Source: a bacterium
GTDB lineage: Bacteria; Bacteroidota; Ignavibacteria; Kapaibacteriales; UBA7675
Reading direction: 5' to 3'
DNA: 64,000 nt
Assembly (NCBI GenBank): GCA_030430495.1
Contig: JAUIKM010000009.1
Location: 6,250-70,249 of the forward strand
Below the pieces are notes generated by a model. That model saw only the letters and a list, made by a program, of their open reading frames with translations. It did no database searches and was not told the DNA's origin. Shown piece after piece: positions 46,162 through 64,000 of the stretch; within the stretch, counting starts at the first letter, position 1; each line of letters begins with the position of its first letter. The position numbers and the translations under genes are program-made.

Positions 46162-46171
46162 CATGACCTTC

Positions 46172-46218
46172 TTGTTTGTCGCGCAGCTGAAAGTGTTAAA
46201 CACAGCGACAAACAAAAG
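46172..46218. repeat. Hairpin of the TTGTTTGTC/GACAAACAA family: 11-bp stem, 22-nt loop.
   Basis: CTTGTTTGTCGC-gcagctgaaagtgttaaacaca-GCGACAAACAAG. It lies 11 bp after the stop of the 44827..46161 gene, so it is possibly a terminator. Confidence 0.55.
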
Positions 46219-48070: not shown

Positions 48071-48263
48071 TGAATTTTCCGCCCAGCTGTGAACCCGACG
48101 CCGGAGCCGACGGGCGCAACAATCGATCCCGCAATTTACGAGGAATTGGCGGCATGGCCTGCGACGGCCTGCTCCGCTCCGCCCAATTTTGCTAGTTTTG
48201 CCGTCGATTGCGAGCAACAAACACAGGAATCGCGGCGCATCCGGGCGCCGCGGCGACACGGCC

Positions 48264-48875
48264 ATGAACAGACTTCTCGACTTCCGCAAACCGCTCATTC
48301 TGGCTTCGGCCTCGCCGCGCCGCCGGCAGCTCTTAAGCCAGCTCAACCTGGAATTTGAGGTGCGCGTGGCGCGCATCGACGAGGAAAAACTTGCGCGCGG
48401 CCTGCAACCGCGCGACTACGTCATGAAACTGGCACAGTCCAAAGCAGCCGCGATTGCTCGGGACGCGGGCGACGCATGGGTGATCGGCGCGGACACAATC
48501 GTCGTGCTGGACAACAACATCATCAACAAACCGGCCGACGCGGACGAAGCCTGTGCGATGCTGCGCCGCCTTTCCGGTCGCACGCATCAGGTCTACAGCG
48601 GCTTTGCCATTATCGACGCCGGCACCGGCGCGAGCCTGGCTGACTACCGCCGCACGGACGTGGAATTCCGCGAGTTGGACGAAGATGAAATACGCGACTA
48701 CGTGGCGGGCGGCTCGCCGCTGGACAAAGCCGGCGCATACGGCATCCAGGATGATTTCGGCGCAGTCTTTGTGCGCGAGGTGCGCGGCTGTTACTACAAC
48801 GTCGTCGGCCTGCCGCTGGAACTGCTGTACCGCCGTCTGCGCGAATGCCTCACTACGGGAATTACAGCCGAATGA
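48264..48875 (+). CDS. maf: Maf-family nucleoside triphosphate pyrophosphatase.
   Basis: LILASASPRRRQLL is the Maf N-terminal motif. IGADTIVVLD and GAYGIQD are present. Confidence 0.85.
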   Translation: MNRLLDFRKPLILASASPRRRQLLSQLNLEFEVRVARIDEEKLARGLQPRDYVMKLAQSKAAAIARDAGDAWVIGADTIVVLDNNIINKPADADEACAMLRRLSGRTHQVYSGFAIIDAGTGASLADYRRTDVEFRELDEDEIRDYVAGGSPLDKAGAYGIQDDFGAVFVREVRGCYYNVVGLPLELLYRRLRECLTTGITAE

Positions 48876-49771
48876 AACTGAGCATCGGGCGCACAACGCG
48901 CCTGCACGGCCAGACGGCGATCCTGCTTTCGCCCTGGATGATCACCTTCCTGGTGTTCTGGCTTTTTCCGCTCATCTACGCGTTGTACATGAGTTTCACG
49001 CGTTACCTGACGCTGCGCAACGAGGCCGAGTGGATCGGGTTCGACAACTACGTACGCATCTTCAACGACGACCTGTTCTGGACGGCGCTGGCCAATACCT
49101 CGATTTTTGTCGTCGGAACGATCCCCTTCACGACGGCGCTGGCGCTGGGCCTGGCTTTGGCGGTGCACCGCGTCAAAAAATTCCGCAATTTTTTCCGCTC
49201 GGCTTTTTTCCTGCCTTCGGTCAGCTCGCTGGTGGTGCTCTCGCTCATCTTCACCAATCTCTACGCCAAGGACGGCTACATCAATTACCTGCTGCAGATG
49301 CTGGGACTCGACTACCCCGAACGCGGCTGGCTGCTGGAACCGTCGACGGCGCTCTTTGCCGTGATGGGCATGGAGGTCTGGATTTCGGCAGGATATTACA
49401 TGGTTATTTTCCTGGCGGCGCTGCAGACGATCCCGAAGGATTACTACGAGGCGGCCGAGCTGGCGGGCGCAAACCTTTGGACACAACTGACGCGCATAAC
49501 CATTCCCCTGCTCAGACCAACCCTCTTGTTTGTCCTCGTGATCAACACGATCAAGTCGTTTCAGGTATTCGTCGAGATTTACGTGATGACAAAGGGCGGT
49601 CCATTGCACGCCACAACAACGCTGATTTACCAGGTATTTATCAACGCCTTTGAAAAAGCCGATATGATGGGTTATGCGGCGGCGCTGGCCTATGTGGTTT
49701 TCATAATAATTCTGCTGTTTTCCCTTCTACAGATCAAAATTTTGCGCATCGACCGCGGAACAGGCGAATGA
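48872..49771 (+). CDS. ABC transporter permease (MalF/UgpA-type, binding-protein-dependent). An orphan.
   Basis: EAA loop AAELAGANLWTQLTRITIPLLRP and six TM helices. Start ATGA-coupled to the maf stop. The stop overlaps the plsY start. Confidence 0.75.
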   Translation: MKLSIGRTTRLHGQTAILLSPWMITFLVFWLFPLIYALYMSFTRYLTLRNEAEWIGFDNYVRIFNDDLFWTALANTSIFVVGTIPFTTALALGLALAVHRVKKFRNFFRSAFFLPSVSSLVVLSLIFTNLYAKDGYINYLLQMLGLDYPERGWLLEPSTALFAVMGMEVWISAGYYMVIFLAALQTIPKDYYEAAELAGANLWTQLTRITIPLLRPTLLFVLVINTIKSFQVFVEIYVMTKGGPLHATTTLIYQVFINAFEKADMMGYAAALAYVVFIIILLFSLLQIKILRIDRGTGE

Positions 49772-50433
49772 GTACTTTTGAATCGATTCTGGTTTCGATA
49801 GCAAGCGCGGCGGTGGGCTATATGCTCGGCGCTATTCCGACGGCCTGGCTTGTTATGCGCCGCGCATTGGGACGCGACATCCGCAGCGAGGGCTCGCACA
49901 ACGTCGGCACGCGCAATTTTTACGAGGTTTCCGGCTCAAAATGGCTGAGTGTGGCAGTACTGCTGGGCGATGCGCTCAAGGGCGCGGCGGCCGTCTGGTT
50001 CGGCATATTCATTTCGCCCGACGACTTTCTGGGCGCGGGCGTGGCGGCCTTTTTTGCGGTGGTCGGGCACAACTACAACATTTTCATCCGCGCGGGCGGG
50101 CGCGGCCTGGCTACGGCGGCGGGCGCGGCGCTGGCGATGAATCCGCTGCCGCTGGTACTTTTCCTGCTGATGTACGTTACCGGTTTTTATATTATTCGCC
50201 GCAACGTGCACATCGCGACGGTCATCGGCGCGCTCGGCATGGCTACGCTGTTGTTCAACACGCCGCAGCCGATTATCGAGTACATTCAGTTTGCGCCGCT
50301 CGAATACGTGTCCCAGTTCAAGGTCGCCTGGACGGCCATCGCGCTGCTGGTGGTCGTCAAAAACATCGAGCCGATCCGCGAGCTCGTCGGCGCAAATCGC
50401 GAAGCCGACGAGGAGTCGATCAGGAATAATTGA
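49768..50433 (+). CDS. plsY: Glycerol-3-phosphate acyltransferase PlsY.
   Basis: GSHNVGTRN (a variant of the PlsY GSGNxGATN motif). 5-6 TM helices over about 220 aa. Confidence 0.85.
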   Translation: MSTFESILVSIASAAVGYMLGAIPTAWLVMRRALGRDIRSEGSHNVGTRNFYEVSGSKWLSVAVLLGDALKGAAAVWFGIFISPDDFLGAGVAAFFAVVGHNYNIFIRAGGRGLATAAGAALAMNPLPLVLFLLMYVTGFYIIRRNVHIATVIGALGMATLLFNTPQPIIEYIQFAPLEYVSQFKVAWTAIALLVVVKNIEPIRELVGANREADEESIRNN

Positions 50434-50727: not shown

Positions 50728-52344
50728 GTGACCACGCCCGCGGCGCTAAAAATTGTAAATTTGCAGCGTGAATCCGGAGGGTGGAACGACAGATCGTTCC
50801 GCGTGTACTGCCTTCCAAAGAGACCCGGCCATCATATTCATGGTTCTACGTTGAGCGACAATCAAGAAGCGGCTGCGGGCGCAGGGGCGGGGCGGACAAT
50901 CCTGGCCGGCTCGGCGGTGGTGTTTGCCGCGCAGATGATCAACACACTCCTGATGATCCTTGCGCAGCGCGCCATCCTCTCGACCCTGCCCAAGGACGCC
51001 AACGGCGATTTCTACTGGGTGCAGCGCTTCGTCGACCTGGCCATCGTCGTGTTTGTCGAGCTCGGCATGGCGCAGGTGGCCGGACGCATGATCATCCACC
51101 AGCCGCATCGCGCCGACGACATCATGGGAACCTTCATCAAGCTGCGCATGATGCTGTGGCTGCTGGTGTCCGCCGCCACGCTGGGCGCAATCCTCTTCTA
51201 CAAACCTGGCGTTGTTGACCTTACCCTGCTCACTCTGCTTTTTTACCTGGTGGCCGGACGCACCGGCGTCATGCGCATGGTGTTTGAGACGCGCCGCCGC
51301 GCACGCACGGACCTGACGCTGATCTCGGCTTTGTCCGTCCTGGACATGCTGCTCTTCACAACACTCGTCATCTTCGACCAGTCCAGCCTGACGCCGGAGC
51401 GCGTCATGCTGTGGATGCTGCTGGCCGCCCTGCCCGGTTTTGTCTGGATGGTCCTGGTCTCGGGCGACGTCAAACGCATCTTCAGCAATTTCAGTCTGGA
51501 TATCGCGCGGCAGTTCCTGCGCGAATGCGCGCCGATTTTCATGGCCGGCATTTTCATGCAGGTGGCCGAAAAGGCCGAGATCTTCTTTTTTGACCTGTAC
51601 TCAACCAGCACGGAGACCGGCATTTACGGCGCGGCCTCCAAGGTCTACCTGCCTTTTCTGGTCGTCGTCGTGTCGTTCACCACCGGTCTCTACGCCTCGG
51701 TGGCGCGTTTTCACAGGGAGGACCCGGAGCGCGCCAACCGCATGATTTATCGCGGTTTAAAGGTGTTGCTCCTCCTGGCCGTGGGCTTCTCGATGCTGAC
51801 GAGCGCGGCCGCGCCGTGGATTATTCACTTCCTGACAAAAGATCAATACGCGGACAATCTGGTGCATTTTCAGTTGTTCCCGTGGACGTCCTTCGCCGTT
51901 TTTGTCGTGCACTACGTGATGTTCATGCACATCACGATCGGCACACAGCGGCGCAACAACTGGATTGCCATCGCCCTGCTGGTCTCCAGCGCGGCGGCGC
52001 ACATCGTGTTTACCTCGCAGTTTGAAGCGCTCGGCGCCATCGTCGCGCGCCTCGTCGCCAACCTGATTACGGCGGGCGTGGCGCTCTACACCCTGCGCGA
52101 CGTTTTCAACGGCGAGCGCCTGCGCGGCCTGCTGCTCAACGTAGGCGCGCTGGCGCTGATTTCCGCCGCGGCAACGTGGTACGGACTGCAAATCCTGCCG
52201 ACCGCGGCGGCTGTTCTGGCGGCATTGCCTATCTTTGTGCTTTTTGTCGTGCTGACGCGCGCCGTCGACAAACAGGACGTCGACCTGGCCCGCAGCATCT
52301 TCCAGGGCGTGCTGAACAAACTGGGAATCAAGGGAGGCCGGTAG
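50728..52344 (+). CDS. Wzx-like polysaccharide flippase (MOP / polysaccharide biosynthesis protein family).
   Basis: About 12-14 TM helices, typical of Wzx-family flippases. The start is uncertain: the first roughly 40 codons from the GTG at 50728 are not membrane-protein-like. The TTG at 50851 (MSDNQEAAAGAG...) is an alternative. Confidence 0.7.
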   Translation: MTTPAALKIVNLQRESGGWNDRSFRVYCLPKRPGHHIHGSTLSDNQEAAAGAGAGRTILAGSAVVFAAQMINTLLMILAQRAILSTLPKDANGDFYWVQRFVDLAIVVFVELGMAQVAGRMIIHQPHRADDIMGTFIKLRMMLWLLVSAATLGAILFYKPGVVDLTLLTLLFYLVAGRTGVMRMVFETRRRARTDLTLISALSVLDMLLFTTLVIFDQSSLTPERVMLWMLLAALPGFVWMVLVSGDVKRIFSNFSLDIARQFLRECAPIFMAGIFMQVAEKAEIFFFDLYSTSTETGIYGAASKVYLPFLVVVVSFTTGLYASVARFHREDPERANRMIYRGLKVLLLLAVGFSMLTSAAAPWIIHFLTKDQYADNLVHFQLFPWTSFAVFVVHYVMFMHITIGTQRRNNWIAIALLVSSAAAHIVFTSQFEALGAIVARLVANLITAGVALYTLRDVFNGERLRGLLLNVGALALISAAATWYGLQILPTAAAVLAALPIFVLFVVLTRAVDKQDVDLARSIFQGVLNKLGIKGGR

Positions 52345-52352
52345 AAGCCGAG

Positions 52353-53861
52353 GTGTCGACACTTTCCGCAGACAAAGCCGATGTACGCAGCCGCCGCATT
52401 CGCGGACGGCGCCTGGCCGAATGGACGCCCAGCGTGTTCCAGTTTCTGGCGGACGTCGTGGCGATGATCGGCTCGGTGCTGCCCTACTACTGGCTCAAAT
52501 TTTTCTCCGGCTGGTTTGAAACGGAAACGCCGGCGCACGTGGCTTCCAACCCGCTGCTGATTGCCTTCACGGTGGTGGGCCTCTCGCTCTTCTGGATTGT
52601 GCTGTTCTGGTTTGCCGGGCTGTACAAAAATTGGTTCGTGCGCTCGCCCTTTGAAGAACTCTTCTCGGTCGTCAAACTGACCATCGTCGGCTGTTTCATA
52701 TTGTTCGCGGCGATTCTGTGGGATGACAACTTCGGCTCCTCGCTCAACTCGCGGCTGATCATACTCGTGTACTGGCTGCTCGTTTCACTCTCGGTGATGT
52801 TCGGCCGTTTGACGGCGCGGGCGGTGCAGCGCCGTCTGCGCGAACGCGGCATTATTCGCATTCCGGCTATTCTGGTCGGCTGTGCCGACAAAGTCGCCGA
52901 TTTGTACCGCTCGCTCAAGTCCGCGCCGGCGCTCGGTTACCTTCCGCTGGGTGTTGTGTTACAGCCTTCGGCCGCAGACAGCGAAAACGCCGAGCGCGAC
53001 GCAGCCGCGCGCGACGAACTGCGCGACCTGGAAGATCTGGGATCGCCGGCTAACCTTGGAAAAATTCTGGAAGACAAGCGCCCGCGCGAAGTCCTCATGG
53101 CAATCGGCCGGATAAGTCACGACGACCTGCTGGACCTGGCGTCCACCTGCAGCGCCAAGAACGTTCAAGTGAAAATTGTGCCCGATCTGTACGAAATTTT
53201 TTCCGGTCAGGCGCGCACGATGCAAATTTACGGGACGCCGCTGATCGAGGTCAGCCCGCAGCTGATGAAACCCTGGGAGGAAGTCGCCAAGCGCCTGCTC
53301 GACATCCTCGTCAGTCTGGGCGTCCTTGTCGTCGGCCTGCCGCTCTGGGTAATGGTGGCCATCCTGATCCGCCTGGATTCGCCCGGCCCGATTCTGTACT
53401 CACAGACGCGGGTGGGACGCGACGGCCGCAATTTTACGCTGCACAAGTTCCGTTCGATGTACACGGATGCCGAAAAACACGGCCCGCAGTGGGCCAAAAT
53501 GAACGATCCGCGGGTGTCGCGTGTAGGCCGATTTATTCGCAAAACGCACATCGACGAGTTTCCGCAGTTCTGGAACGTCTTGCGCGGCGAAATGAGCATG
53601 GTGGGACCGCGGCCCGAACGCCCCTACTACGTTGAAAAATTTACCGAGGCGATTCCGTATTACCCGCGGCGTCTGAAGGTGCGGCCCGGCATTACCGGCT
53701 GGCACCAGGTCAAATACGTCACGTACGACGAAACGCTGAAGGACGTGCGCGAGCGGCTGCGCTACGACTTTTTCTACATCGAAAACATGTCGTTTAAACT
53801 CGACCTGGAAATCCTGGCGCGGACTGTCTTCCGCGTGCTCAAGGGGCATGGCCAGGCCTGA
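52353..53861 (+). CDS. Polyprenyl (undecaprenyl)-phosphate sugar phosphotransferase (WbaP/CpsE-type priming enzyme).
   Basis: C-terminal catalytic domain RLDSPGPILYSQTRVGRDGRNFTLHKFRSM...DEFPQFWNVLRGEMSMVGPRPE...RPGITGWHQV. N-terminal TM block plus a CoA-binding-like linker. Candidate GTG start at 52353. The track ORF starts at 52176, overlapping the flippase. Confidence 0.8.
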   Translation: MSTLSADKADVRSRRIRGRRLAEWTPSVFQFLADVVAMIGSVLPYYWLKFFSGWFETETPAHVASNPLLIAFTVVGLSLFWIVLFWFAGLYKNWFVRSPFEELFSVVKLTIVGCFILFAAILWDDNFGSSLNSRLIILVYWLLVSLSVMFGRLTARAVQRRLRERGIIRIPAILVGCADKVADLYRSLKSAPALGYLPLGVVLQPSAADSENAERDAAARDELRDLEDLGSPANLGKILEDKRPREVLMAIGRISHDDLLDLASTCSAKNVQVKIVPDLYEIFSGQARTMQIYGTPLIEVSPQLMKPWEEVAKRLLDILVSLGVLVVGLPLWVMVAILIRLDSPGPILYSQTRVGRDGRNFTLHKFRSMYTDAEKHGPQWAKMNDPRVSRVGRFIRKTHIDEFPQFWNVLRGEMSMVGPRPERPYYVEKFTEAIPYYPRRLKVRPGITGWHQVKYVTYDETLKDVRERLRYDFFYIENMSFKLDLEILARTVFRVLKGHGQA

Positions 53862-53895: not shown

Positions 53896-54636
53896 ATGAA
53901 AGCACTTGTCGTCATACCCACATACGATGAAAAAGACAACATCCGCGCGATTATCAGCGCCGTGCTGGCCGTGGACGAACGCCTCGAAATTCTGGTGGTG
54001 GACGACAGCTCGCCCGACGGCACGGGGCAGATCGTCAGGGACATGCAGGCCGCGGGTGAGAGCCGCCTGCACCTGAAGGAACGCGCCGGCAAGATGGGCC
54101 TCGGCACCGCCTACGTGGCCGGTTTTGGATATGCGCTGCAACGCGACTACGACTTCGTGTTTGAAATGGACGCCGACTTTTCGCACGACCCCAAAGAGCT
54201 CAAAAACTTCCTGGAAAAAATCGAAGACGCGGACCTGGTGCTCGGCTCGCGTTACATCAAAGGCGTCAACGTCGTCAACTGGCCGATGTCGCGCCTGCTG
54301 CTCTCCTACTTTGCCAACCTGTACACGCGCATCGTGACGGGCATGCCGGTCAAAGATGCGACGGGCGGCTTCAAGTGTTTCCGCGCCGCGACGCTGCGAG
54401 CCATCGACTTTTCGGACATCAAGTCCAACGGCTACGCCTTCCAGATTGAAATGACCTTCAAAGCCTGGCAGGCCGGCGCGCGCATCGTCGAAATCCCGAT
54501 CATTTTTGTCGACCGGCGCTCGGGCGTCTCCAAGATGAGTAAAAACATCATCTACGAAGCCGCCTTCCTGGTCTGGAAACTCAAAATTTCTTCCCTCTTC
54601 GGCAAACGGCGGCGCAGCAGACTGCCGACCAATTGA
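53896..54636 (+). CDS. Polyprenol-phosphate mannose (or hexose) synthase, GT2 Dpm1-like.
   Basis: MKALVVIPTYDEKDNI...ILVVDDSSPDGTGQIV...FEMDADFSHDP, the Dpm1 / ArnC / GtrB-type DAD motif region. 246 aa with no TM anchor. Confidence 0.8.
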   Translation: MKALVVIPTYDEKDNIRAIISAVLAVDERLEILVVDDSSPDGTGQIVRDMQAAGESRLHLKERAGKMGLGTAYVAGFGYALQRDYDFVFEMDADFSHDPKELKNFLEKIEDADLVLGSRYIKGVNVVNWPMSRLLLSYFANLYTRIVTGMPVKDATGGFKCFRAATLRAIDFSDIKSNGYAFQIEMTFKAWQAGARIVEIPIIFVDRRSGVSKMSKNIIYEAAFLVWKLKISSLFGKRRRSRLPTN

Positions 54637-54717
54637 AACGGGACGCGTGGAGCGGCGAACAGGCTCCGGAAATTTTTTCAGCGGCGGCAACAGCCGCCCG
54701 GTTTTGATGCAGCACTT

Positions 54718-56226
54718 ATGAACGTCGACGCCCTGCAAAACACCTGGAACGAATTACGCCGCAACCCGCCATTGCAGTGGTGGGCGGGCATTCTTTTCGG
54801 AGCCGTCCTGGCCGCGATCCTGATCGGCGCGTTTTTTAACAGCCGCGTGCTCTACCTGGCCGCCGGAGCGTTTGTCGCTTTCCCGCTCGTGGCGATCATG
54901 TCGCGCTACCCGCAGGCCTGGATCTTCAGCGTCGTGGCGCTGCACGCCGTCTGGCTGCGCACGAGCGACAAAGGGCTGAGCCTGGTGGAAATTGCCATCG
55001 TCGGTTTTTTCTTCGGCAGCCTCAGCCTGTGGTTCCTGTGGCAATTTGTGGTCAAACGCAAGCGCCTGGTGCGCCACGCCGGCGACCTGCTGATATTGAT
55101 AGCCTCCGGTCTGGCCGTCCTCAACCTGGGCGTGGCGTACTACCGCGAAGTTCTCATCCTGGAGTGGTTCCGGCAGTTCCTGCTCTGGGCCATGATCCTC
55201 TACTACTTCCCGATACGCGAGTACATCACCACCGACAAACGCCTGCGCATCTTCTTTTACATTCTGCTGGGCGTGTTTTGCGTGGTCGGCGTGCAGACGG
55301 TGCAGGCGTATATTCGCGCCACGACGGACATCGTCTACGCCTACGAGCTGGTCTCGGCGCGTTCGGCGCTGACGGAAATGGCGCTGGTGGCCGCGACCAT
55401 CGGCTGCGCCGGCGCATTGCTTTTTGCGCGGCGACTGATCAGCAATATTTTCTCGCTGGGACTGACGGTCTTTTTCTTCAGCTGCCTCGTGGCCACCTTC
55501 TCGCGCAGTTTCTGGGCGGCGACGATGATGAGCCTGGGCATGCTGTATGTCTTTTCGCGTGCGCGGCAGCGAGCCAAGATTCTGGTCATGTCGCTCATCG
55601 GCGTGGCGATCGCAATTTTCGGCATCCTCACTTTTGTGGGCGAGGACAAAGCCGAGCTTTTTCTGGGGATGTTGCAGTCGCGCTTTGAGTCGATATTTTC
55701 GCCCACCAAATCCGTCTCGCTGGAAGCGCGCGGCAGCGAGTCGGCTGAGCTGGTCAAACTCATTCCGGAGTCGCCGATGCTCGGTTTTGGCTTCGGCGCG
55801 ACCTTCATGTTTTACGACCCGATTTTCAACACCTACGCCGTCGGCAACTTCATTCACAACGGCTACCTCTACCTGGCATTCAAGCTGGGCATACCGACGG
55901 CGCTGCTCTTTCTGGCGGGACTGATTATTCACCTCTGGCGCGCCATTCCACTTTTCCGGCGGGTGCACGACCCGCTCCTGCGCTACGCCCTGATGGTGTC
56001 CTTCGCCTGTTTGTCCGCCGAATTGATGGTCAGTTATTTCGGCAACCAGTTTGCCTTCCGCGAGGGCGTTTTCCTCTACGCCATCAACCTGGCGCTGATT
56101 TCGATTGTCGAACGCCGCGTGGATCAAACTGAAACGGGCGGCAAAACGCTGGACCGCGTGCTTCCGTTGCTGCCGGCGGGCAGACAGAAAGCACTTCAGG
56201 CGGCTTCCACGAACACAACACCCTGA
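54718..56226 (+). CDS. O-antigen ligase / Wzy-like polymerase family membrane protein.
   Basis: About 12 TM helices. Wzy_C-like region FSRSFWAATMMSL ... large periplasmic loop ... NFIHNGYLYLAFKLGIPT (H-N-x-Y-L motif). Confidence 0.7.
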   Translation: MNVDALQNTWNELRRNPPLQWWAGILFGAVLAAILIGAFFNSRVLYLAAGAFVAFPLVAIMSRYPQAWIFSVVALHAVWLRTSDKGLSLVEIAIVGFFFGSLSLWFLWQFVVKRKRLVRHAGDLLILIASGLAVLNLGVAYYREVLILEWFRQFLLWAMILYYFPIREYITTDKRLRIFFYILLGVFCVVGVQTVQAYIRATTDIVYAYELVSARSALTEMALVAATIGCAGALLFARRLISNIFSLGLTVFFFSCLVATFSRSFWAATMMSLGMLYVFSRARQRAKILVMSLIGVAIAIFGILTFVGEDKAELFLGMLQSRFESIFSPTKSVSLEARGSESAELVKLIPESPMLGFGFGATFMFYDPIFNTYAVGNFIHNGYLYLAFKLGIPTALLFLAGLIIHLWRAIPLFRRVHDPLLRYALMVSFACLSAELMVSYFGNQFAFREGVFLYAINLALISIVERRVDQTETGGKTLDRVLPLLPAGRQKALQAASTNTTP

Positions 56227-56570: not shown

Positions 56571-56990
56571 TCAGGCGGCCTGGCGGTACTGCTCGGCATA
56601 GCGCTGAATCTGGGCCAGCAGGTCCTCCAGCCCGGTCGTGTGGTTGGCCGACTTAAACGCATCCATGTCCAGCTGCTGCACAAAATTCGGCGGTGAATCC
56701 AGAATCTCCTGCGGCGAACGGCTCGAATAAATGCGCATTAACATCGCAATAATGCCGCGCATCTGCATTGAGTCGCTGTAACATTCAAATTCGAGTTTGC
56801 CGTCGACGAAGTTAACATCGTGCCAGATAACCGTCTGGCAACTGACGAGGGTGCGTTCGGGTGTTTTTTTCTCTTCGGGGAACGGCGGCAGACTGCGCCC
56901 GAGCCTGACCATGTAACGAAAGCGCGCCTCAAAGTTTTCGAGGGCGTTAAACTCTTCCACAATCTGTTGTTGTACGTCGTTACAGGTCAT
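56571..56990 (-). CDS. sufE: SufE-family cysteine desulfuration / sulfur acceptor protein.
   Basis: 139 aa. LVSCQTVIWHDVNFVDGKLEFECYSDSMQMRGIIAML matches the SufE C-x-S-x-V-W core with a conserved Cys. Confidence 0.75.
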   Translation of the reverse strand: MTCNDVQQQIVEEFNALENFEARFRYMVRLGRSLPPFPEEKKTPERTLVSCQTVIWHDVNFVDGKLEFECYSDSMQMRGIIAMLMRIYSSRSPQEILDSPPNFVQQLDMDAFKSANHTTGLEDLLAQIQRYAEQYRQAA

Positions 56991-57137: not shown

Positions 57138-58775
57138 TCAGAAGTCTTCAAATGCAAATGCCAGGCTGAAATTGTGCGCCGCCGCGCCGTTGACGTTGTC
57201 GAGCCGGTAAACCGCGTGCACGTTAAAACCGCGAATAAACTCCCAGCCGGCCGCCAGCCCGAGTGCAAAGCGGCGTTCGACGTCGCCGTCCAGAAAAGGA
57301 CTGATTTCCGAGTCCTCGCTGCGGCGCGCCTGCAGCACATCGCCGCCGACATTTTTGATCAGCGTTACGCCGTCGGCCGCGTAGATATTGCGTCCGTGGC
57401 GACGGAAGGAAGCCTCGACGGTGACGGGATAACGACCGCCGTACCACCAGCGCATACGCGCCGCCAGCTGATCCGAGTTGGGCGGCAGAAAACCGCCGAG
57501 CTGAACCTGGTCATTTGTGATGGAATTCTGCACGTTGAAGTGGCTGTAGGTGTAGGGCCGCACGCGGCTGTACTCCAGCGCGGCGTCGAGCGGCAGGCGT
57601 GGAGCGAACATCAGGCCGACGTTCCAGGCGGTTTTGTTGCCGGAAAACTCATCGCCGATGCGGCCAAACTGCAGATCGTCCAGGAAAAAAGCGGCGCGCA
57701 GTTCCAGGCCGTCGAGCGGTCGAATCGTGGCGTCGAGGCCCAGGGCGCTGTTGTCGCGGTCGCGCAGCGAGTGTTCGATCGACTTGAAAAAGCTGAGCGG
57801 GTTCAAGTAGGCCAGGTCGAGGTTGCGGTCGCTGTACATCACCTGCTCGGTGAAGGAGACCTGGCCCCAGCCGGCGCGCAGCGCAAAGCGGTGGTACGCC
57901 ATGTACTTGGCCGGAATCAGCGCTTCGGGCCCAAACTGAAAACCGGTCTGCGGGCCGCCGACGAGCGAGGCGTGCGCAAAACGATAGGCGAAGTGTTCGA
58001 AATCGGCCTCAACGCTGAGTGCGTCCATCGGCGGCGCAAGATTGCCGATAAAAATGCGGTTGAAGTAACCCGCTCCGCTGAGCCGCCGCATGCGCGAGAT
58101 TGAAACGCCGAACCAGTCGCGCGCAAATCGCACATGCGACTCGGCGAAGTCAAAGTCGCTGTCCAGGTCGCCGAATTTGACGTTGGCGGACAGGCGCGGA
58201 TCTTCGAGCGCCAGGGACTTCTCACCTGAAATCGCCGCGCCGTTGGTGACCTGCAGGTAAAACCCGAGCATGTCGTCGACACTGCCGTGGAAACGCAGGC
58301 CGCCCTGCCCCAGCAGGACGCTGCGCGAGGAATCGGCGCTCTGCATGCGCTGCTCCACCGCTCCGAGCGGCTGCAGAAACATCCGCAGGCGGTCCGTACT
58401 GTCGTAGTAGACTGATTTTTCGCTGTCGCTGAAAAGACCGTCAAAAAAGAGGTCCTGCTGGTCGCCGTGCGCAAAGATGGCGGCGCGGCGCGATTCCGTC
58501 AGACCAAACTCGCGCTCAAACTGTTCGAGCAGACTGAGTTCGGCGGCATCCAGCCGGGTGGCTTCGGCACGCAGCGTCCGCAGCGCGGCGCTCACATGCC
58601 CGCGCGGCAGCGGCAGTTCCGCCAGTGAAAAATTACCGAGCAGACCGCGCGCCTGCATGCGCTCCAGCCAGGGATAGACCGGGTGTTCAATCGGCAGGTA
58701 CTCCACCTGCGCCGTCGCGGACGCGATCGTCAGGAGCGCCAGGACCGGCAGCAGCAGAATGCGAAGTCGGGTCAT
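57138..58775 (-). CDS. Outer-membrane beta-barrel protein, probably capsule-assembly Wzi family.
   Basis: Signal peptide MTRLRILLLPVLALLTIASATA. An early HPVYPWLERMQARGLL motif resembles the Wzi N-terminal helix. The C-terminus ends ...LAFAFEDF (aromatic-terminal OMP signature). It lies adjacent to a Wza-like exporter. The family call is from memory and tentative. Confidence 0.5.
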   Translation of the reverse strand: MTRLRILLLPVLALLTIASATAQVEYLPIEHPVYPWLERMQARGLLGNFSLAELPLPRGHVSAALRTLRAEATRLDAAELSLLEQFEREFGLTESRRAAIFAHGDQQDLFFDGLFSDSEKSVYYDSTDRLRMFLQPLGAVEQRMQSADSSRSVLLGQGGLRFHGSVDDMLGFYLQVTNGAAISGEKSLALEDPRLSANVKFGDLDSDFDFAESHVRFARDWFGVSISRMRRLSGAGYFNRIFIGNLAPPMDALSVEADFEHFAYRFAHASLVGGPQTGFQFGPEALIPAKYMAYHRFALRAGWGQVSFTEQVMYSDRNLDLAYLNPLSFFKSIEHSLRDRDNSALGLDATIRPLDGLELRAAFFLDDLQFGRIGDEFSGNKTAWNVGLMFAPRLPLDAALEYSRVRPYTYSHFNVQNSITNDQVQLGGFLPPNSDQLAARMRWWYGGRYPVTVEASFRRHGRNIYAADGVTLIKNVGGDVLQARRSEDSEISPFLDGDVERRFALGLAAGWEFIRGFNVHAVYRLDNVNGAAAHNFSLAFAFEDF

Positions 58776-60586
58776 CAGCGGTTCAGCCAGTTGATGAGCG
58801 TGGTCGCCACAACCACGGCAGCGGACACGAGGTTGACGTAGAAGGAGTATTCCTGCGCCTCCACGCCCGGCGCAAACTGCGGGTCGGCCGGAACGTATAT
58901 GATGTCGCCGGACTCGACCACGATGTCGTCAAAGTTGTCTTCGATCCAGATATTGGTTCGTCCCTTGATCACCGCCGCGCGTCCCATGTCCGCCGATTCG
59001 GCCGCGCCGCCGGCTTGCCGCAGATACCAGGCGGCCGTGCGCCCCTCCACAAAACCGACGTAGCCGGGATTTGCGACGTGGCCGTAGACGTAGACATTCA
59101 TTGGGTTGCGCGGGATCACCAACACGTCGCCGTTCTGCATGGTGATGTTGTCCTGCTCGGAATTTTCCAGCAGGGCCGCGCCGACGTCGCAGGCGGCCAT
59201 CGAGCTGCGCAGCATATTGTGCATGCGGAAACGCGCGGTGTCGCCCAGGCCGAGCGTATAAAATTGCGTCAGGCGCACCTGGGTCTCTTCGGGCGTGTAG
59301 TGTTCCGCTCCCATGAAGTCGCGGCGCAACACGTATGCAAGCGGCAGATAGGCTTCCTCGTTGGTTCCGCCGGCCATTTCCACCAGATCTTTCAGGCGCG
59401 TCTCACCCGGTTGAATGACAAAGGTCCCCGGTTTTGCAACCATGCCGCTGACCGACGCGGTCACGACGCTTGCGGGCTCAAGAGCTGAGCGCTCAACGAC
59501 AATTTTTGCGCCGGCGGTGATGGGGCGATCGCCCTGACCGGACATGACCGCGTTCACGTCGATATTTTCGCGCGAGGCCGAGCCCGGCGCCAGGTAGTAC
59601 ACTTCGTTGGAGTCGGCGTGATCCGCGAGGCCGTAACCGGCGCGCAGCAGCAGCGAGAGGCTGTCGCCGCGGCGCCATGGAATAATGGCGGGGCGGCGCA
59701 CCGCTCCGGCAATCGAAACGGTCGGCGCTTCGGCCGGTTCAAAGGGAACAAAAATTTCATCGCCTTCGCGCAGCGTGGGGTCCTCTTCGGGACGGTTCAA
59801 CAGACGCGCGCGGATGTCGTCGGAAATATGCGAGGTGCCGTCCTTGTGGTAGACGACCGTATTGCGACGCAGCCATTCACAGAGGTAATTCTCGCCCAGT
59901 TCGGACTCTACCTTGGCATAGGCGCGGTCGCGCAAGGTGCGAATGAGCGGTTTGCCGCCGCCGCCGAGTGTGGTCTTTGGATCCTGATTGGCGTACTGCA
60001 CGGCCGTCGAGACGCGCATCGAAGCAGGCAGGGCGTACATGCGCGGATATTTGACGTTGCCGCCGATATCGACAAATACGGTGCGCGCTTTCAGCAGCGA
60101 CACCGCGACGCCCCAATTGGCATTGCGCTCGCGGTACAGCGCTTCGACCGTATCGCGCACTTCGGCCAGATTTCTATCCAGCACGGAAATGCGGCCGATG
60201 CGCGGCAGCATCAACATGCTTTCGGGCGAAATCATCAGCGGATACTCACCGGACAGCGTACCGACCAGTTGCAGCAGCAGCACGTCGCCGGGGCCGACCT
60301 GGTAGACCTCGGGGTCGACCACGTTGTCGGTCGGAAACGCATCGGTGTCGCTCGCCAGCAATTCGAGCGGACTCGCGCCGCTCTGCGCCGACACACCCGG
60401 GCCGGGCATGCCGTAGGAATCGTCGCTGCCACCGCCGAGACCGCCGGACTGGGCGTAGACTGCCGGACAGCAGCAAATCGCGATGAACAGAAGGAGTGCA
60501 TTAAGTCGAAGCGCGGCTCGCATCATAGGTCGGCGTTGCATCACAGAGATGCGCATGTTTGTACAGACAGAGGTTTGTTCAGTCAC
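58775..60586 (-). CDS. Polysaccharide export protein (Wza-like: Poly_export plus SLBB domains).
   Basis: Signal peptide. YQVGPGDVLLLQLVGTLSGEYPLMISPESMLMLPRIGRISVLDRNLAEVRDTV is the Poly_export motif. Multiple SLBB-like beta-grasp repeats follow. Confidence 0.75.
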   Translation of the reverse strand: MTEQTSVCTNMRISVMQRRPMMRAALRLNALLLFIAICCCPAVYAQSGGLGGGSDDSYGMPGPGVSAQSGASPLELLASDTDAFPTDNVVDPEVYQVGPGDVLLLQLVGTLSGEYPLMISPESMLMLPRIGRISVLDRNLAEVRDTVEALYRERNANWGVAVSLLKARTVFVDIGGNVKYPRMYALPASMRVSTAVQYANQDPKTTLGGGGKPLIRTLRDRAYAKVESELGENYLCEWLRRNTVVYHKDGTSHISDDIRARLLNRPEEDPTLREGDEIFVPFEPAEAPTVSIAGAVRRPAIIPWRRGDSLSLLLRAGYGLADHADSNEVYYLAPGSASRENIDVNAVMSGQGDRPITAGAKIVVERSALEPASVVTASVSGMVAKPGTFVIQPGETRLKDLVEMAGGTNEEAYLPLAYVLRRDFMGAEHYTPEETQVRLTQFYTLGLGDTARFRMHNMLRSSMAACDVGAALLENSEQDNITMQNGDVLVIPRNPMNVYVYGHVANPGYVGFVEGRTAAWYLRQAGGAAESADMGRAAVIKGRTNIWIEDNFDDIVVESGDIIYVPADPQFAPGVEAQEYSFYVNLVSAAVVVATTLINWLNR

Positions 60587-61682
60587 GGAGAATCAGATCC
60601 AGATCGTTGGCGATGCGTTCGGCCGCACGCCCGTCCCAGAAGGGCGGAACCTCGGTCCCCTGCGGCGGATGCGCAAAGGTCTCGGCCAGGGCGGTTCGCA
60701 GCAGATCCACCTGCGGCGCAACCAGTCGATTGCTGCCGAGGGTAATTGTCGACGGGCGTTCCGTGCTCGTGCGCATGGTGACGCAGGGCACTTTCAACGC
60801 GGTCGTTTCTTCCTGGATGCCGCCGGAGTCCGTCAGCACGAGCGCGGCTTCGCGCATCAGCGCCGTAAAACGAACGGGCGACTGCGGCTCCAGGATGTGC
60901 AGGCGCGGATGATCTTCGATCATGGCCTGCATTCCGAATTTTTCGATGCGCGCCCGCGTGCGCGGATGCAGCGGCAGGACGACGTCGCGTTCGTCGGCCG
61001 TGTCGCGCAGCAGCTGCAGCAGACCGCGCAACTGTTCTTTGTCGTCGACATTGCTGGGGCGGTGCAGCGTCACCAACACGTACTCCCCCGCCGTCAGTCC
61101 CAACTCGGCGCGCAGCGGACAGGCGCGCGCCGCGTCGAGGATAAAAAACAGCGAGTCGATCATCGTGTTGCCGCGGAAAAAAATGCGCTCGCGCGGCCAG
61201 CCCTCGCGCAGCAGATTGTCCAGGCCGCTCTGTTCCGTCACAAAGGCGTAGTCGCAGACGGCGTCGATCGCCAGACGATTCAATTCTTCCGGCATCTCGC
61301 GATCGCCGGAGCGCAGGCCGGATTCAATGTGCACCAGCGGCACGTGCAGTTTGCGCGCCGTCAGGCCGCAAGCCAGGCTGGAATTGACGTCGCCCACGAC
61401 AATGACAAGGTCGGGTTTGTGCTCCTGCACAACGCCCTCAAACGCCATCATCACGCGCGCTGTCACTTCGGCATGACTGCCGGATCCAACGCCCAGAAAC
61501 ACGTCCGGTTCGGGTAGTTGATGTTCCTGAAAAAAAACATCCGACATGTTGACGTCATAGTGCTGCCCGGTGTGCACAATGACGTGCTGAATGCGATCGG
61601 CACAGGCTTGCAGCGCCCGGTGGATCGGCGCGACTTTCATGAAGTTGGGTCGCGCGCCGACGACCGAAATCACTTTTTTCAT
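60579..61682 (-). CDS. wecB: UDP-N-acetylglucosamine 2-epimerase (non-hydrolysing).
   Basis: MKKVISVVGARPNFMKVAPI...VHTGQHYD...DLVIVVGDVNSSLA...HIESGLRSGD. Full-length WecB. Confidence 0.9.
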   Translation of the reverse strand: MKKVISVVGARPNFMKVAPIHRALQACADRIQHVIVHTGQHYDVNMSDVFFQEHQLPEPDVFLGVGSGSHAEVTARVMMAFEGVVQEHKPDLVIVVGDVNSSLACGLTARKLHVPLVHIESGLRSGDREMPEELNRLAIDAVCDYAFVTEQSGLDNLLREGWPRERIFFRGNTMIDSLFFILDAARACPLRAELGLTAGEYVLVTLHRPSNVDDKEQLRGLLQLLRDTADERDVVLPLHPRTRARIEKFGMQAMIEDHPRLHILEPQSPVRFTALMREAALVLTDSGGIQEETTALKVPCVTMRTSTERPSTITLGSNRLVAPQVDLLRTALAETFAHPPQGTEVPPFWDGRAAERIANDLDLILRD

Positions 61683-63091
61683 TTGCCGTCTCCCAGCAGC
61701 ACCACTTTGGCCCGATCGGCTTCGGGGACGTTGCGGCAGGCATTGCGCGTGTCGATCACCACATTGCTGTTGGCGGCGATCATATCGTAGTCAAAGCTGC
61801 TGTGATCGGTCGTGATCACGCAGACGTCGTAGCCCTTGAGCACGTCCGGATCGATCGCCGGCAGCGAGTCTATCGTGCGGCCGTGAATGCGGATCGACGG
61901 CACGTAGGGATCGAAGTAGTTGATATTCGGGATGTCGTCCTCGTCCAGCAGCTCGATGACTTTGAGCGCCGGCGAGTGGCGCAGATCGTCCACGTCGCGC
62001 TTGAAGGCGACGCCCAGCAGCAGGATGCGAGCCTCGATGGTCGTCACCGGCTGGCGTGCAATCTCGCGCGTAATCATGTCGCGCACATAAAAGGGCATCG
62101 ACTCATTGACTTCGGCCGCCAGCGTGATAAAATTCGTCACGAAGTCGTCCTTGCGCGCCGCCCAGGAGAGGTAGTATGGATCGATCAGGATGCAGTGTCC
62201 GCCGATGCCCGGTCCGGGGAAAAAGGGCATAAAACCGAAAGGTTTGGTGGAGGCGGCTTCAATCGCCTCCCACACGTTGATGCCGCCCATGCGGTCGCAG
62301 AGCTGCGCCAGTTCGTTGACGAGCGCGATGTTGACGCTGCGGAAAATGTTCTCGAGCAGCTTGGACATCTCGGCGACTTTGGGGTTGGACACCGTCACAA
62401 CCTCTGCGATAATCAGCTCGTTGACTTCGGCCGCCAGTTTGGTGCACAGTTGCGTCACACCGCCGACCACGACGGGCGTATTGCCCGTGTTGAACCGCTG
62501 ATTGCCCGGATCGATGCGCTCGGGCGAAAAGGCCAGGAAAAAATTGCGGCCGACTTTTCTCTGCTCGTTTTCGAGCTGGGGCAGCACGTGCCCTTCGGTC
62601 GTGTTCGGAAAAGTCGTGCTTTTGAGAATCACCAGCTGGCCGAGCTGCATGTGCGCCGCGATATTGCCCGTAGCGCTCATGATATACTGGATATCCGGTT
62701 CTTTATTCGGTGTGAACGGCGTCGGAACGCAGATGTAGAGCACATCGCAACCGGCGAGCCGACTGAAGTCGTCCGTGGCGTCGAGCAGATTGTCCCGCAC
62801 CAGTTGACGCAACACGTCGCTGTCGACGTCCTGGATGTAGTTGTCGCCACGATTGATCGCCTGCGTTTTAGCGGCGTCGACGTCGAACCCCAGCACCTGG
62901 ATGCCGCGTTGACCAAACTCGACTGCCAGCGGCAGGCCGACATAGCCGAGCCCGATAATGCCGATTTTCAGCGTTCTGGCACTGATTTTCTCGCGCAGTT
63001 GCGTCGCAAGCGCCGTCGCCTCCGGATGTGCGTTCCGCTCGTTGTAGCCGGGCGCATCTCCCCGTGAACCATGCAGTTGTTGTGACGCCAT
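61679..63091 (-). CDS. Nucleotide-sugar dehydrogenase (UDP-ManNAc / UDP-GlcNAc 6-dehydrogenase, WecC/TviB-like).
   Basis: NAD-binding KIGIIGLGYVGLPLAVEF. The catalytic Cys region and the C-terminal UDP-binding domain are present. Overlaps wecB by 4 nt. Confidence 0.85.
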   Translation of the reverse strand: MASQQLHGSRGDAPGYNERNAHPEATALATQLREKISARTLKIGIIGLGYVGLPLAVEFGQRGIQVLGFDVDAAKTQAINRGDNYIQDVDSDVLRQLVRDNLLDATDDFSRLAGCDVLYICVPTPFTPNKEPDIQYIMSATGNIAAHMQLGQLVILKSTTFPNTTEGHVLPQLENEQRKVGRNFFLAFSPERIDPGNQRFNTGNTPVVVGGVTQLCTKLAAEVNELIIAEVVTVSNPKVAEMSKLLENIFRSVNIALVNELAQLCDRMGGINVWEAIEAASTKPFGFMPFFPGPGIGGHCILIDPYYLSWAARKDDFVTNFITLAAEVNESMPFYVRDMITREIARQPVTTIEARILLLGVAFKRDVDDLRHSPALKVIELLDEDDIPNINYFDPYVPSIRIHGRTIDSLPAIDPDVLKGYDVCVITTDHSSFDYDMIAANSNVVIDTRNACRNVPEADRAKVVLLGDGK

Positions 63092-63100
63092 AGTCTTTAT

Positions 63101-64000
63101 TCAGAGCTTGTAATGTTGTCGATAATACTCGCGGTACGCGCCGGACCGCACGTGCGCACACCAATCGGCGTTGGCGCGGTACCATTCGATCGTAGACCGC
63201 AAACCCGCTTCAAAGCTGTGCCGCGGTTGCCAGCCGAGATTGCTCCGCAGAGCGCTCGCATCCACCGAATAGCGGAAATCGTGCCCGGGTCTGTCCGCAA
63301 CAAAGCGGATTAAACGTTCCGATTTGCCTAAAATTTGAAGGATGGCGCGAACAACGTCCATGTTCGCCTGTTCGCCGTCGGCGCCGATGTTATACACTTC
63401 ACCGGCATTTGCGTTGCAATACACCGCCCAGACGGCGCTGCAATGGTCGTCCACGTGAATCCAGTCGCGCACATTCTCGCCGTCGCCATACACCGGCAGC
63501 GGCTCGTCGTCCAGCGCATTGAGGATCATCAGAGGAATGAGTTTTTCGGGGAATTGACGCGGGCCGTAGTTGTTGGAGCAGCGCGTAATCACAGTGTCCA
63601 TGCCGTAGGTGTGGTGGTAGGCGCGCACCATCAGGTCGGCGCTCGTCTTGGACGCCGCGTAGGGTGAATTGGGCCGCAGCTGTGAGTGTTCCGTAAAAGT
63701 TCCGTCGCGGCCGAGCGTGCCGTACACTTCGTCGGTGGAAATCTGCAGAAAACGACGAATGCCGTGGGCGCGGGCGCACTCAAGCAGCGCCAACGTGCCG
63801 GAAACATTAGTGTCGACAAAAATCGCCGGGCCGCTGATCGAACGGTCCACGTGCGTTTCCGCCGCAAAGTTGATAATGCCGTCGAAGTCCTGTTCACCGA
63901 CCGTTTTGTTCAGCGCCGCAGCGTCGCGGATGTCGCCGTGGACAAAAGTGTAGCGCGGGTCGGATTCCAGATCGCTGAGATTTTCCAGGTTGCCGGCGTA
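63101..64000 (-). CDS. rfbB: dTDP-glucose 4,6-dehydratase (partial: the 5' end is beyond the window end).
   Basis: HFAAETHVDRSISGPAIFVDTNV...TDEVYG...PYAASKTSADLMVRAYHHTYG...C-terminal ...YYRQHYKL. The frame stays open from 63850 up to position 64000 (AGNLENLSDLESDPRYTFVHGDIRD...). Confidence 0.85.
   Translation of the reverse strand, partial: YAGNLENLSDLESDPRYTFVHGDIRDAAALNKTVGEQDFDGIINFAAETHVDRSISGPAIFVDTNVSGTLALLECARAHGIRRFLQISTDEVYGTLGRDGTFTEHSQLRPNSPYAASKTSADLMVRAYHHTYGMDTVITRCSNNYGPRQFPEKLIPLMILNALDDEPLPVYGDGENVRDWIHVDDHCSAVWAVYCNANAGEVYNIGADGEQANMDVVRAILQILGKSERLIRFVADRPGHDFRYSVDASALRSNLGWQPRHSFEAGLRSTIEWYRANADWCAHVRSGAYREYYRQHYKL

Follow-up and report, generated by a model that had tools for sequence, protein, structure and literature searches.

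In three-component systems, a cytoplasmic GT2 enzyme loads polyprenyl phosphate with a sugar, and a GT-C enzyme transfers this sugar to a polymer outside the membrane; GtrA/GtrB act together with a Gtr-type GT-C on the O-antigen, and CsbB/GtcA/YfhO act on teichoic acids (PMC5836110, PMC7389260, PMC8035078). Two enzymes that handle lipid-linked mannose provide further points of reference. Arg117, Arg131 and Ser135 of the dolichyl-phosphate mannose synthase (DPMS) from Pyrococcus furiosus (PfDPMS) bind the lipid phosphate and are retained among bona fide DPMSs (PMC5526996), and TMEM260 is a metazoan protein O-mannosyltransferase that uses Dol-P-Man (PMC10214176). The 64-kb stretch of DNA analyzed here, referred to as the window, resembles the three-component systems in that it encodes both a predicted GT2-type synthase and GT-C enzymes. 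A first-pass annotation had interpreted the synthase gene at 53896-54636 and the GT-C gene at 44827-46161 as a GtrAB-like side-branch system. We lean, if only slightly, toward another arrangement, in which the synthase would provide a shared supply of polyprenol-phosphate-mannose for several periplasmic GT-Cs, one of them decorating the polysaccharide of the locus.

The forward-strand gene at 53896-54636 encodes a protein of 246 amino acids that we classify as a Dpm1/DPMS-type GT2, a predicted polyprenol-phosphate mannose (hexose) synthase; according to the family alignment, the ATG at 53896 is to be preferred as its start over that at 53848. The protein matches Pfam Glycos_transf_2 (97 bits, E 1.5e-27) and possesses no transmembrane (TM) or hydrophobic segments. 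Its closest solved relative is PfDPMS (PDB 5mlz; 98 bits, E 3.5e-27), with which it shares 33% identity, while the PDB chains of ArnC score 36 bits (E 1e-8) and the GtrB protein sll0501 22.6 bits (E 5e-4). Ten residues of PfDPMS (Glu12, Asp39, Asp89/Asp91, His94, Arg117, Arg131, Ser135, Arg202 and Lys208) are all kept in the synthase, and they are invariant in 24 of the 24 family members, drawn from several phyla, over which we judged conservation. They comprise the DXD motif (D92-A-D94, corresponding to D89-A-D91 of PfDPMS), the lipid-phosphate-binding set R119, R133 and S137 (Arg117, Arg131 and Ser135), and the contacts to the GDP donor, namely D37 (Asp39, contacting guanine), E12, H97 (His94), R207 (Arg202) and K213 (Lys208). 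The likeness to DPMS, Dpm1 and Ppm1 hence extends over the GT2 domain, the DAD motif, the guanine-binding Asp, the lipid-phosphate Arg/Arg/Ser set and the Arg/Lys pair of the A-loop, and the description of the protein as a Dpm1-like synthase in the first-pass annotation was well chosen. Its sequence makes the protein a bacterial relative, conserved over a wide range, of the enzyme by which a membrane lipid carrier is charged with mannose.

The correspondence with PfDPMS is not complete. PfDPMS has four TM helices and the window protein has none; furthermore, the metal/phosphate contact Gln93 is replaced by Ser96, which is invariant in the family, the mannosyl/phosphoester contact Lys178 by Ala181, and Phe177 by Tyr. 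Human DPM1 carries the same changes at these three positions. An identity as ArnC, the undecaprenyl-phosphate Ara4FN transferase, was rejected, as the score for NCBIfam PRK10714, 39.8 bits, falls far short of the cutoff (529) and the PDB chains of ArnC are matched so much more poorly than PfDPMS; in this respect the synthase also departs from the ArnC/ArnT system. An identity as GtrB or CsbB, which make polyprenol-phosphate glucose or GlcNAc, was likewise rejected on account of the bit scores given above and of the two C-terminal TM helices that the window protein lacks. Every NCBIfam equivalog cutoff lies far above the score of the synthase, including those for AglJ, PpgS and the haloarchaeal hexose transferase. 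In the literature that we searched, we found neither a characterized polyprenol-P-mannose synthase from Bacteroidota or the FCB group (Fibrobacteres-Chlorobi-Bacteroidetes and allied phyla) nor a characterized member of this synthase family.

The synthase gene is flanked by genes for polysaccharide assembly. Directly upstream lies the gene for a WbaP/EPS-type polyprenyl glycosylphosphotransferase (PGT; 52353-53861, forward strand; TIGR03025 420 bits, cutoff 296; Bac_transf 232 bits), that is, the priming transferase; for Dpm1 and the mycobacterial Ppm1, no such arrangement is known. Directly downstream, a forward-strand gene (54718-56226) encodes a Wzy_C-family membrane protein of the polymerase, ligase or O-oligosaccharyltransferase type (Wzy_C 48 bits, cutoff 31.7) with about 10 hydrophobic segments. 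Ahead of the priming transferase, a Wzx-like flippase with an uncertain start codon (50728-52344, forward strand) is indicated by a weak Wzx_EPS match and 12 hydrophobic segments; its orthologues are called at 494-523 amino acids, and that of the relative L001 carries Polysacc_synt. Profile searches with Pfam and NCBIfam define at 39350-41329 (reverse strand) a fusion protein that joins an N-terminal GT2 domain to a WbaP-like membrane/CoA_binding_3 region and to a shortened PGT domain, whose alignment to the PGT ends at the re-entrant helix. Pfam matches further identify a GT2 (41485-42303, forward strand) and three GT4 enzymes (42297-43466, reverse; 43589-44713, forward; 46853-48376, reverse); the stretch from 41485 to 44713 constitutes a variable glycosyltransferase block. 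On the reverse strand follow genes for a Wzi-like protein (57138-58775), which has no Pfam match of its own and is 60% identical to an orthologue carrying Caps_assemb_Wzi, and, each by profile match, for a Wza-like protein (58775-60586), WecB (60579-61682) and a UDP-sugar dehydrogenase (61679-63091); the product of a truncated open reading frame fragment (63101-63850, reverse strand) aligns with the C-terminal part of RfbB alone. The set for a Wzx/Wzy-dependent pathway is thus present, with a priming transferase, Wzx (weak in the window), a Wzy-type protein and an outer-membrane exporter. No Wzz/Wzc chain-length regulator or co-polymerase was detected among the window open reading frames scanned, and it may lie beyond position 64000. 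The priming transferase, the three GT4 and two GT2 enzymes, Wzx, Wzy, Wza, Wzi, WecB, the dehydrogenase and RfbB had all been recognized by the first-pass annotation, and we recovered each of them where it had been placed or nearby. The region from 39350 to 64000, which had been treated as one locus, is nevertheless not uninterrupted, as it is broken by genes for Maf (48189-48875), an ABC permease (48845-49771), PlsY (49768-50433) and SufE (56571-56990).

The forward-strand gene at 44827-46161 encodes, from an ATG at 44827, a compact PMT_2/ArnT-like GT-C glycosyltransferase of 444 amino acids. Its sequence scores 40.6 bits with Pfam PMT_2 against a gathering threshold of 26.1, and its AF2 model (pLDDT 89.2, pTM 0.89) retrieves GT-C enzymes almost throughout ranks 1-39 of a Foldseek search against the PDB; the top match is AglB (E 4.5e-6, TM-score about 0.5), and ArnT, PglB/STT3, ALG9/12, Pmt, PimE and Emb can all be superposed on the model. 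When the PDB was searched by sequence with the same protein, no similarity to any solved GT-C was detected. Based on this modeled structure, the protein is confidently predicted to adopt a GT-C fold, and together with the PMT_2 match the superpositions establish its likeness to the ArnT/PMT_2 (GT83/GT39-like) enzymes, with the difference from ArnT that the window protein is just 444 residues long and has no large periplasmic domain. Of 16 homologues, at least 90% share E50, which is located in the motif YEHGEIA after the first TM segment. With a confident GT-C fold on the one side and a synthase that scores as DPMS over ArnC on the other, neither of the two outcomes that the first-pass annotation had named as speaking against its proposal, a missing GT-C fold and a grouping with ArnC, was found. 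A tandem repeat of five copies of an 8-nt unit (CGCAGCGG; 44757-44796; TRF score 73) ends 30 nt upstream of the start codon of the compact GT-C gene; the relative L009, which is 92% identical, has no such array at the corresponding position.

Homologues of the compact GT-C are always found in loci of the type Wza-Wzi-Wzz-GT-C-GT-C-Wzy_C-Wzx-GT-PGT, and since these are Wzx/Wzy-type loci throughout, the decoration of a polysaccharide in the periplasm is a reasonable role for this enzyme. The presence of the gene varies, and in the relative L002 a deletion of about 1.15 kb has left approximately its last 105 codons, about one quarter of the gene; the L002 synthase is nonetheless 94% identical to that of the window. 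In a more distant EPS locus with the GT-C (L094), the gene that follows the PGT encodes a DegT-like protein and not a synthase. By such sequence comparisons, the compact GT-C is an accessory gene of the Wzx/Wzy polysaccharide locus that varies between strains.

The synthase is distributed quite differently from this accessory gene. At least 8000 matches were obtained at E <= 1e-10, and 591 relatives reside in species-representative genomes; the best 80 of these 591, which we examined, are 52-70% identical and come from Ignavibacteria, Kapaibacterium, Chlorobiota, Gemmatimonadota, Fibrobacteres and Bacteroidota. Overall, identities amount to 52-80% over Ignavibacteria, Kapaibacteria, Bacteroidota, Gemmatimonadota and Fibrobacteres, a phylogenetic spread that places the synthase among the core genes of the FCB group as a whole and not among the serotype-specific accessory ones. 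A PGT gene directly 5' of the synthase gene was found in 17 loci, including those of every close relative and many distant ones, and the two genes are tightly coupled, overlapping in some lineages. The third gene of the arrangement encodes either Wzy_C (adjacent to the synthase in six of the loci) or a GT2-PGT-like fusion followed by AccA (nine loci); it is the counterpart of the fusion gene at 39350-41329 that directly follows the synthase in these relatives. The conserved gene order marks priming transferase, synthase and Wzy_C as an old, conserved operon in this lineage. Other phyla link their orthologue of the synthase to GT-C genes. In 11 of the 80 loci (again the best 80 of 591), mostly in Gemmatimonadota and reminiscent of CsbB/GtcA/YfhO, the start of the synthase lies 2-8 nt behind the end of a YfhO-like GT-C gene, and in 7 of these 11 the YfhO-like gene is preceded by a gene for a flippase-like LPG_synthase_TM protein. 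In a Calditrichaeota genome, a TMEM260-TPR gene and LPG_synthase_TM lie 3.5 kb upstream of the synthase, and in Bacteroidota the orthologue is located away from any glycan locus. The operonic association of the orthologue with GT-C genes in these other phyla supports a general synthase-plus-GT-C logic.

It is against this distribution that the proposal of a dedicated, Gtr-like pair has to be weighed, in which the sole task of the synthase and the compact GT-C would be to attach a side-branch hexose to the polymer made by this locus. Less than 8 kb separates the two genes in the window as well as in L009 and L001; the GT-C fold of the partner is confirmed, its relatives invariably sit within Wzx/Wzy loci, and the synthase-plus-GT-C logic that the orthologue displays in other phyla fits as well. 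We nevertheless consider such a pair unlikely, because the synthase is highly conserved in phyla that do not have this GT-C family nearby, because L002 retains its synthase with most of the GT-C gene gone, and because no synthase is present inside distant EPS loci that bear the GT-C; moreover, housekeeping genes separate the two genes, GtrA is absent, and the synthase is not of the GtrB type. The side-branch proposal consequently survives with regard to the decoration of a polysaccharide in the periplasm, and it fails with regard to a dedicated pair, as one member is a core gene and the other an accessory one. Since the features of GtrB are missing and no GtrA is present, the term GtrAB-like can stand for a functional analogy at most.

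The window encodes two further GT-C proteins that the first-pass annotation had missed, and these would make equally good or better clients of the synthase than the compact GT-C, which had been taken for its sole partner. Both are TMEM260-like (DUF2723) and are encoded on the reverse strand, one of 1023 amino acids (22422-25493; PF11028 204.6 bits) and one of 1048 amino acids (14655-17801; PF11028 208.8 bits; cutoff 24.2 for each); in a pairwise comparison they are 63% identical to each other. The protein encoded at 22422-25493 matches solved TMEM260 (PDB 9rql) with an E-value of 5.2e-19 in a best match that covers only the N-terminal ~200 residues, and it is the N-terminal GT-C module that both large window proteins have in common with TMEM260. 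They differ from it in size, with about 1020-1050 residues compared to 729 in the solved TMEM260 chain. By analogy to the eukaryotic enzyme, we regard the TMEM260-like proteins as candidate consumers of polyprenol-P-mannose.

One may go further and suppose that the synthase mainly feeds these TMEM260-like enzymes in a bacterial protein O-mannosylation, with the compact GT-C drawing on a different lipid-linked donor. In line with this idea are the strong PF11028 scores, the match to the solved human enzyme and the use of Dol-P-Man by TMEM260; in addition, both families are large and occur together at the level of phyla (Kapabacteria, Ignavibacteria and Bacteroidota), and in Calditrichaeota the respective genes are close together. 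Conserved linkage is absent, however: no TMEM260-like gene lies closer than 10 kb to the synthase in any of the 80 species-representative loci (best 80 of 591). In the window the distance amounts to 28-39 kb, so that the connection rests on the enzymology of the eukaryotic homologue. Furthermore, the literature that we searched holds no characterized bacterial TMEM260-like or DUF2723 protein, and no second polyprenol-P-sugar synthase that could serve the compact GT-C was found in the window. We therefore judge this alternative to be rather improbable. Very improbable, in our assessment, is that the GT2 does not make a polyprenol-monophosphate sugar at all and instead acts in the cytoplasm on the Und-PP-sugar product of the neighboring priming transferase, to which it would attach the second sugar. 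The tight and sometimes overlapping coupling to the PGT in many lineages, the missing TM helix and the NCBIfam equivalog scores below all cutoffs would speak for such a role. Opposed to it are the invariant Dol-P phosphate-binding residues (Arg117, Arg131, Ser135) and A-loop residues (Arg202, Lys208), the by far best match to DPMS among solved relatives, the Gemmatimonadota gene, whose coupling partners are a YfhO-like GT-C and a protein resembling a flippase instead of a PGT, and the position of the Bacteroidota gene apart from any glycan locus.

The data lend themselves best to the shared-supply model. The synthase, as a peripheral-membrane GT2 and the FCB-group orthologue of Dpm1/Ppm1, would move mannose from GDP-mannose to polyprenyl phosphate at the cytoplasmic face of the membrane; mannose is suggested as the sugar because of the DPMS signature residues, and another hexose would be possible. 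It would be expressed from the old operon together with the WbaP-type priming transferase and the Wzy_C-family enzyme. The mannose-lipid would then be flipped across the membrane by some further factor. The absence of a GtrA-like flippase noted in the first-pass annotation holds for the whole 64 kb, as our scan for small 4-TM proteins (open reading frames of 60-220 amino acids with at least three hydrophobic segments) gave none. The sole real small multi-TM candidate in this GtrA/GtcA scan was a DedA/VTT-family membrane protein of 200 amino acids (37698-38300, reverse strand; VTT_dom 47.7 bits, six hydrophobic segments), for which a function as polyprenyl-phosphate recycler or flippase would be speculative. 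Genes for YfhO-like and LPG_synthase_TM proteins, the partners of the synthase in other phyla, were not found among the window open reading frames scanned either. Once flipped, the mannose-lipid would serve as the common donor for GT-C glycosyltransferases that face the periplasm, with three candidate clients in the window: the two TMEM260-like enzymes, whose probable targets of mannosylation are proteins or some other acceptor in the envelope, and the compact GT-C, which most likely adds a side-branch sugar to the polymer of the locus. Which GT-Cs use the product of the synthase, and on which acceptors, is what we infer from these comparisons. In contrast to the GtrB/CsbB systems, the synthase at the center of this model is DPMS-type, has no C-terminal helices and is not accompanied by GtrA/GtcA; in contrast to the self-contained Gtr cassettes, it belongs to the core genes and probably has several GT-C enzymes as its clients. 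The tight coupling of the synthase to the priming transferase has no obvious rationale under a shared supply.

Lipid-linked monosaccharide donors and the GT-C enzymes that use them shape the surfaces of bacteria, and they thereby affect the interactions of the cell with phages, the immune system and antibiotics. As the synthase probably feeds several GT-Cs and not just one, the window offers an ordinary example of a system of well-known type, and the finding mainly improves the annotation of an uncultured Kapaibacteria/Ignavibacteria-like genome. A bolder and rather doubtful extension holds that the human-type, TM-less Dpm1 together with the DUF2723 proteins constitutes a widespread bacterial O-mannosylation, homologous to that by metazoan TMEM260, and that the operon marks a core glycoconjugate. 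If true, the operon of PGT, synthase and Wzy_C (or the GT2-PGT-like fusion) would point to an unrecognized core envelope glycoconjugate in Ignavibacteria and Kapaibacteria. The part most worth pursuing is the wider comparative pattern: a single, highly conserved Dpm1 orthologue throughout the FCB group, whose GT-C partner differs by phylum (YfhO-like, TMEM260-like or PMT_2-like) and whose coupling to the priming transferase is the unexplained part of this pattern.

The protein encoded at 53896-54636(+) (246 aa; Pfam Glycos_transf_2, 97 bits, E 1.5e-27) belongs to the Dpm1/DPMS enzymes rather than with GtrB or ArnC, and its Dpm1-like identity, proposed in the first-pass annotation, is thus borne out. 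Among solved structures, its top match by far is the dolichyl-phosphate mannose synthase PfDPMS of Pyrococcus furiosus (PDB 5mlz; 98.4 bits, E 3.5e-27; 33% identity across 219 positions), against ~36 bits for the ArnC chains and 22.6 bits for GtrB (sll0501). It reached none of the NCBIfam equivalogs, with ArnC at 39.8 against a cutoff of 529, and these scores together rule out a grouping with ArnC. Mapping of the PfDPMS functional residues (PMC5526996) onto the window synthase revealed that Glu12, the guanine-binding Asp39, Asp89/Asp91, His94, the lipid-phosphate-binding Arg117, Arg131 and Ser135, and Arg202 and Lys208 of the A-loop are all kept. Each of them is invariant across 24 family members from several phyla. 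Three positions are altered (Gln93 to Ser, Lys178 to Ala, Phe177 to Tyr), and human DPM1 probably has the same changes. The protein contains no hydrophobic segment and is thus of the peripheral, TM-less Dpm1 type.

This synthase is a core gene. Our homologue search gave at least 8000 matches at E <= 1e-10, those at 65-80% identity being annotated at source as polyprenol monophosphomannose synthase or dolichol-phosphate mannosyltransferase. Species-representative genomes contain 591 relatives, the best 80 of which (52-70% identity) derive from Ignavibacteria, Kapaibacterium, Chlorobiota, Gemmatimonadota, Fibrobacteres and many Bacteroidota orders, and the gene neighbourhoods differ by lineage. 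In Ignavibacteria and Kapaibacteria-like genomes, a priming transferase gene precedes the synthase gene, frequently overlapping it, and either a Wzy_C protein, as in the window (54718-56226(+); 502 aa, ~10 hydrophobic segments, Wzy_C above threshold), or a GT2-PGT-like fusion plus AccA comes next. In these relatives the fusion gene stands directly after the synthase and before accA; in the window, both lie at 38377-41329 on the opposite strand, so that the ancestral block is split here. The fusion (39350-41329(-); also L005 8724-10676) is conserved at 650-660 aa and combines a GT2 domain with a membrane/CoA_binding_3 region like that of WbaP and a PGT catalytic domain that is cut short, with ~90 residues after the re-entrant helix versus ~170 in a true PGT. 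A DedA/VTT-family membrane protein gene (37698-38300(-)) adjoins accA and the fusion gene; speculatively, it is a candidate polyprenyl-phosphate recycler or flippase.

In 11 of the 80 loci (Gemmatimonadota and a few others), a YfhO-like GT-C gene stops 2-8 nt before the synthase start, and in seven of these 11 it is preceded by an LPG_synthase_TM flippase-like gene, which is a textbook three-component operon. This operon was noted in L019, L024, L025, L026, L030, L048 and L056 (Gemmatimonadota) and in L018, L040 and L051. In one Calditrichaeota genome, genes for a TMEM260-TPR protein and for LPG_synthase_TM are located 3.5 kb upstream of the synthase. In Bacteroidota proper (28 loci), an amidohydrolase gene follows the synthase, and no GT-C was present among the large multi-TM neighbours scanned.

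The GT-C fold suspected for the small membrane protein at 44827-46161(+) (444 aa, multi-pass; Pfam PMT_2, 40.6 bits, cutoff 26.1), which resembles PMT_2/ArnT enzymes, was recovered in a confident AlphaFold2 model (pLDDT 89.2, pTM 0.89; alignment of 16 homologues). Foldseek ranks 1-39 against the PDB are nearly all GT-C enzymes (AglB, STT3, PglB, ArnT, ALG9/12, Pmt1/2/4, PimE, Emb, AftA, DPY19; lowest E 4.5e-6, query TM-scores ~0.5). The protein is compact, without a large periplasmic domain, and its type is not rare: a profile search gave 18344 cluster representatives at E <= 1e-10, of which 1192 pass E <= 1e-30. All nearer homologues lie within Wza-Wzi-Wzz-GT-C-GT-C-Wzy_C-Wzx-GT4-GT2-PGT loci, which supports a role on polysaccharide. 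Immediately after Wzz, Bacteroidota MAG EPS loci (L010 10001-17761, L011, L094 6397-9307) hold Wzy_C and Wzx with two or three PMT_2-like GT-C genes around them. An 8-nt repeat in five copies (CGCAGCGG; 44757-44796) lies 30 nt upstream of the window gene's start codon and is missing at the equivalent site of L009, a relative at 92% identity; the array may switch this accessory enzyme by slipped-strand mispairing.

Two further GT-C genes had been missed in the first-pass annotation. The TMEM260-like (DUF2723) proteins at 22422-25493(-) and 14655-17801(-) (205 and 209 bits to this family) are large paralogues with 63% identity, and the former hits the solved structure of human TMEM260 (9rql) at E 5e-19. 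TMEM260 is a Dol-P-Man-dependent protein O-mannosyltransferase of which only "distant homologs" were noted in bacteria (PMC10214176); the TMEM260-like family is large and conserved in Kapabacteria, Ignavibacteria and Bacteroidota. Two T9SS-tailed proteins (19784-20722, 20761-22236) are encoded between the paralogues.

The functional scheme proposed for the window is that of three-component periplasmic glycosylation, as carried out on O-antigen by Gtr systems and on teichoic acids by CsbB/GtcA/YfhO (PMC5836110, PMC7389260, PMC8035078). Gtr-type systems, however, possess a GtrA component without counterpart in the window, and the window synthase is not GtrB. An ORF search found no GtrA-like small 4-TM protein anywhere in the 64 kb, in agreement with its previously noted absence. 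The GtrAB-like pairing of synthase and small GT-C proposed earlier is only partly supported: the fold speaks for it, as does a distance of no more than 8 kb between the two genes in the window and in the relatives L009 and L001, but a dedicated pair is not supported. In relative L002, whose synthase is 94% identical, a ~1.15 kb deletion (~1971-3018 versus window 44713-46853) removed three quarters of the GT-C gene from its 5' end, leaving ~105 final codons (~88% identical), and we found no synthase inside distant EPS loci bearing a small GT-C homologue. Together with the two further GT-C genes, the TMEM260 donor and the breadth of the family, these findings render a dedicated Gtr-like pair unlikely. 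Supply mainly for the TMEM260-like enzymes, a reading in keeping with the TMEM260 donor, appears somewhat less probable still. That the synthase, encoded directly behind the priming transferase, is a cytoplasmic second-sugar transferase acting on the product of that enzyme is very improbable, as its lipid-phosphate residues are invariant in the family and orthologues are coupled to a YfhO-like GT-C.

All ORFs named in the first-pass annotation were found, including the WbaP/EPS-type priming transferase, three GT4 and two GT2 enzymes, WecB, a UDP-sugar dehydrogenase, Wzx-, Wza- and Wzi-like proteins and a truncated RfbB; 39350-64000 is not a single dedicated locus, being interrupted by Maf, an ABC permease, PlsY and SufE. 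Elsewhere in the window, a perfect 70-bp tandem duplication (35319-35460; 2.0 copies, TRF score 284) lies close to the start of a small ORF (35341-35721) without Pfam match, and two signal peptidase I (Peptidase_S26) genes (25754-26659(-), 27667-28584(-)) flank ORF 26639-27658 (339 aa), for which no Pfam match was found.

Family membership, the fold, conserved residues, synteny and the loss of a gene are observations, from which we infer the sugar, the links between donor and clients, and the acceptors in the mechanism that we consider most likely. The synthase would produce polyprenol-P-mannose at the cytoplasmic membrane face, and a separate factor would flip it, the DedA/VTT protein being, speculatively, the sole window candidate of this general kind. 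Several GT-C enzymes would then draw on the flipped product, the two TMEM260-like proteins for a protein or other envelope acceptor and the small, strain-variable GT-C for the locus polysaccharide. Of chief interest is the pattern of a core Dpm1 orthologue with phylum-specific GT-C partners, to which uncharacterised bacterial TMEM260 homologues and an unexplained coupling of the synthase to a priming transferase also belong.
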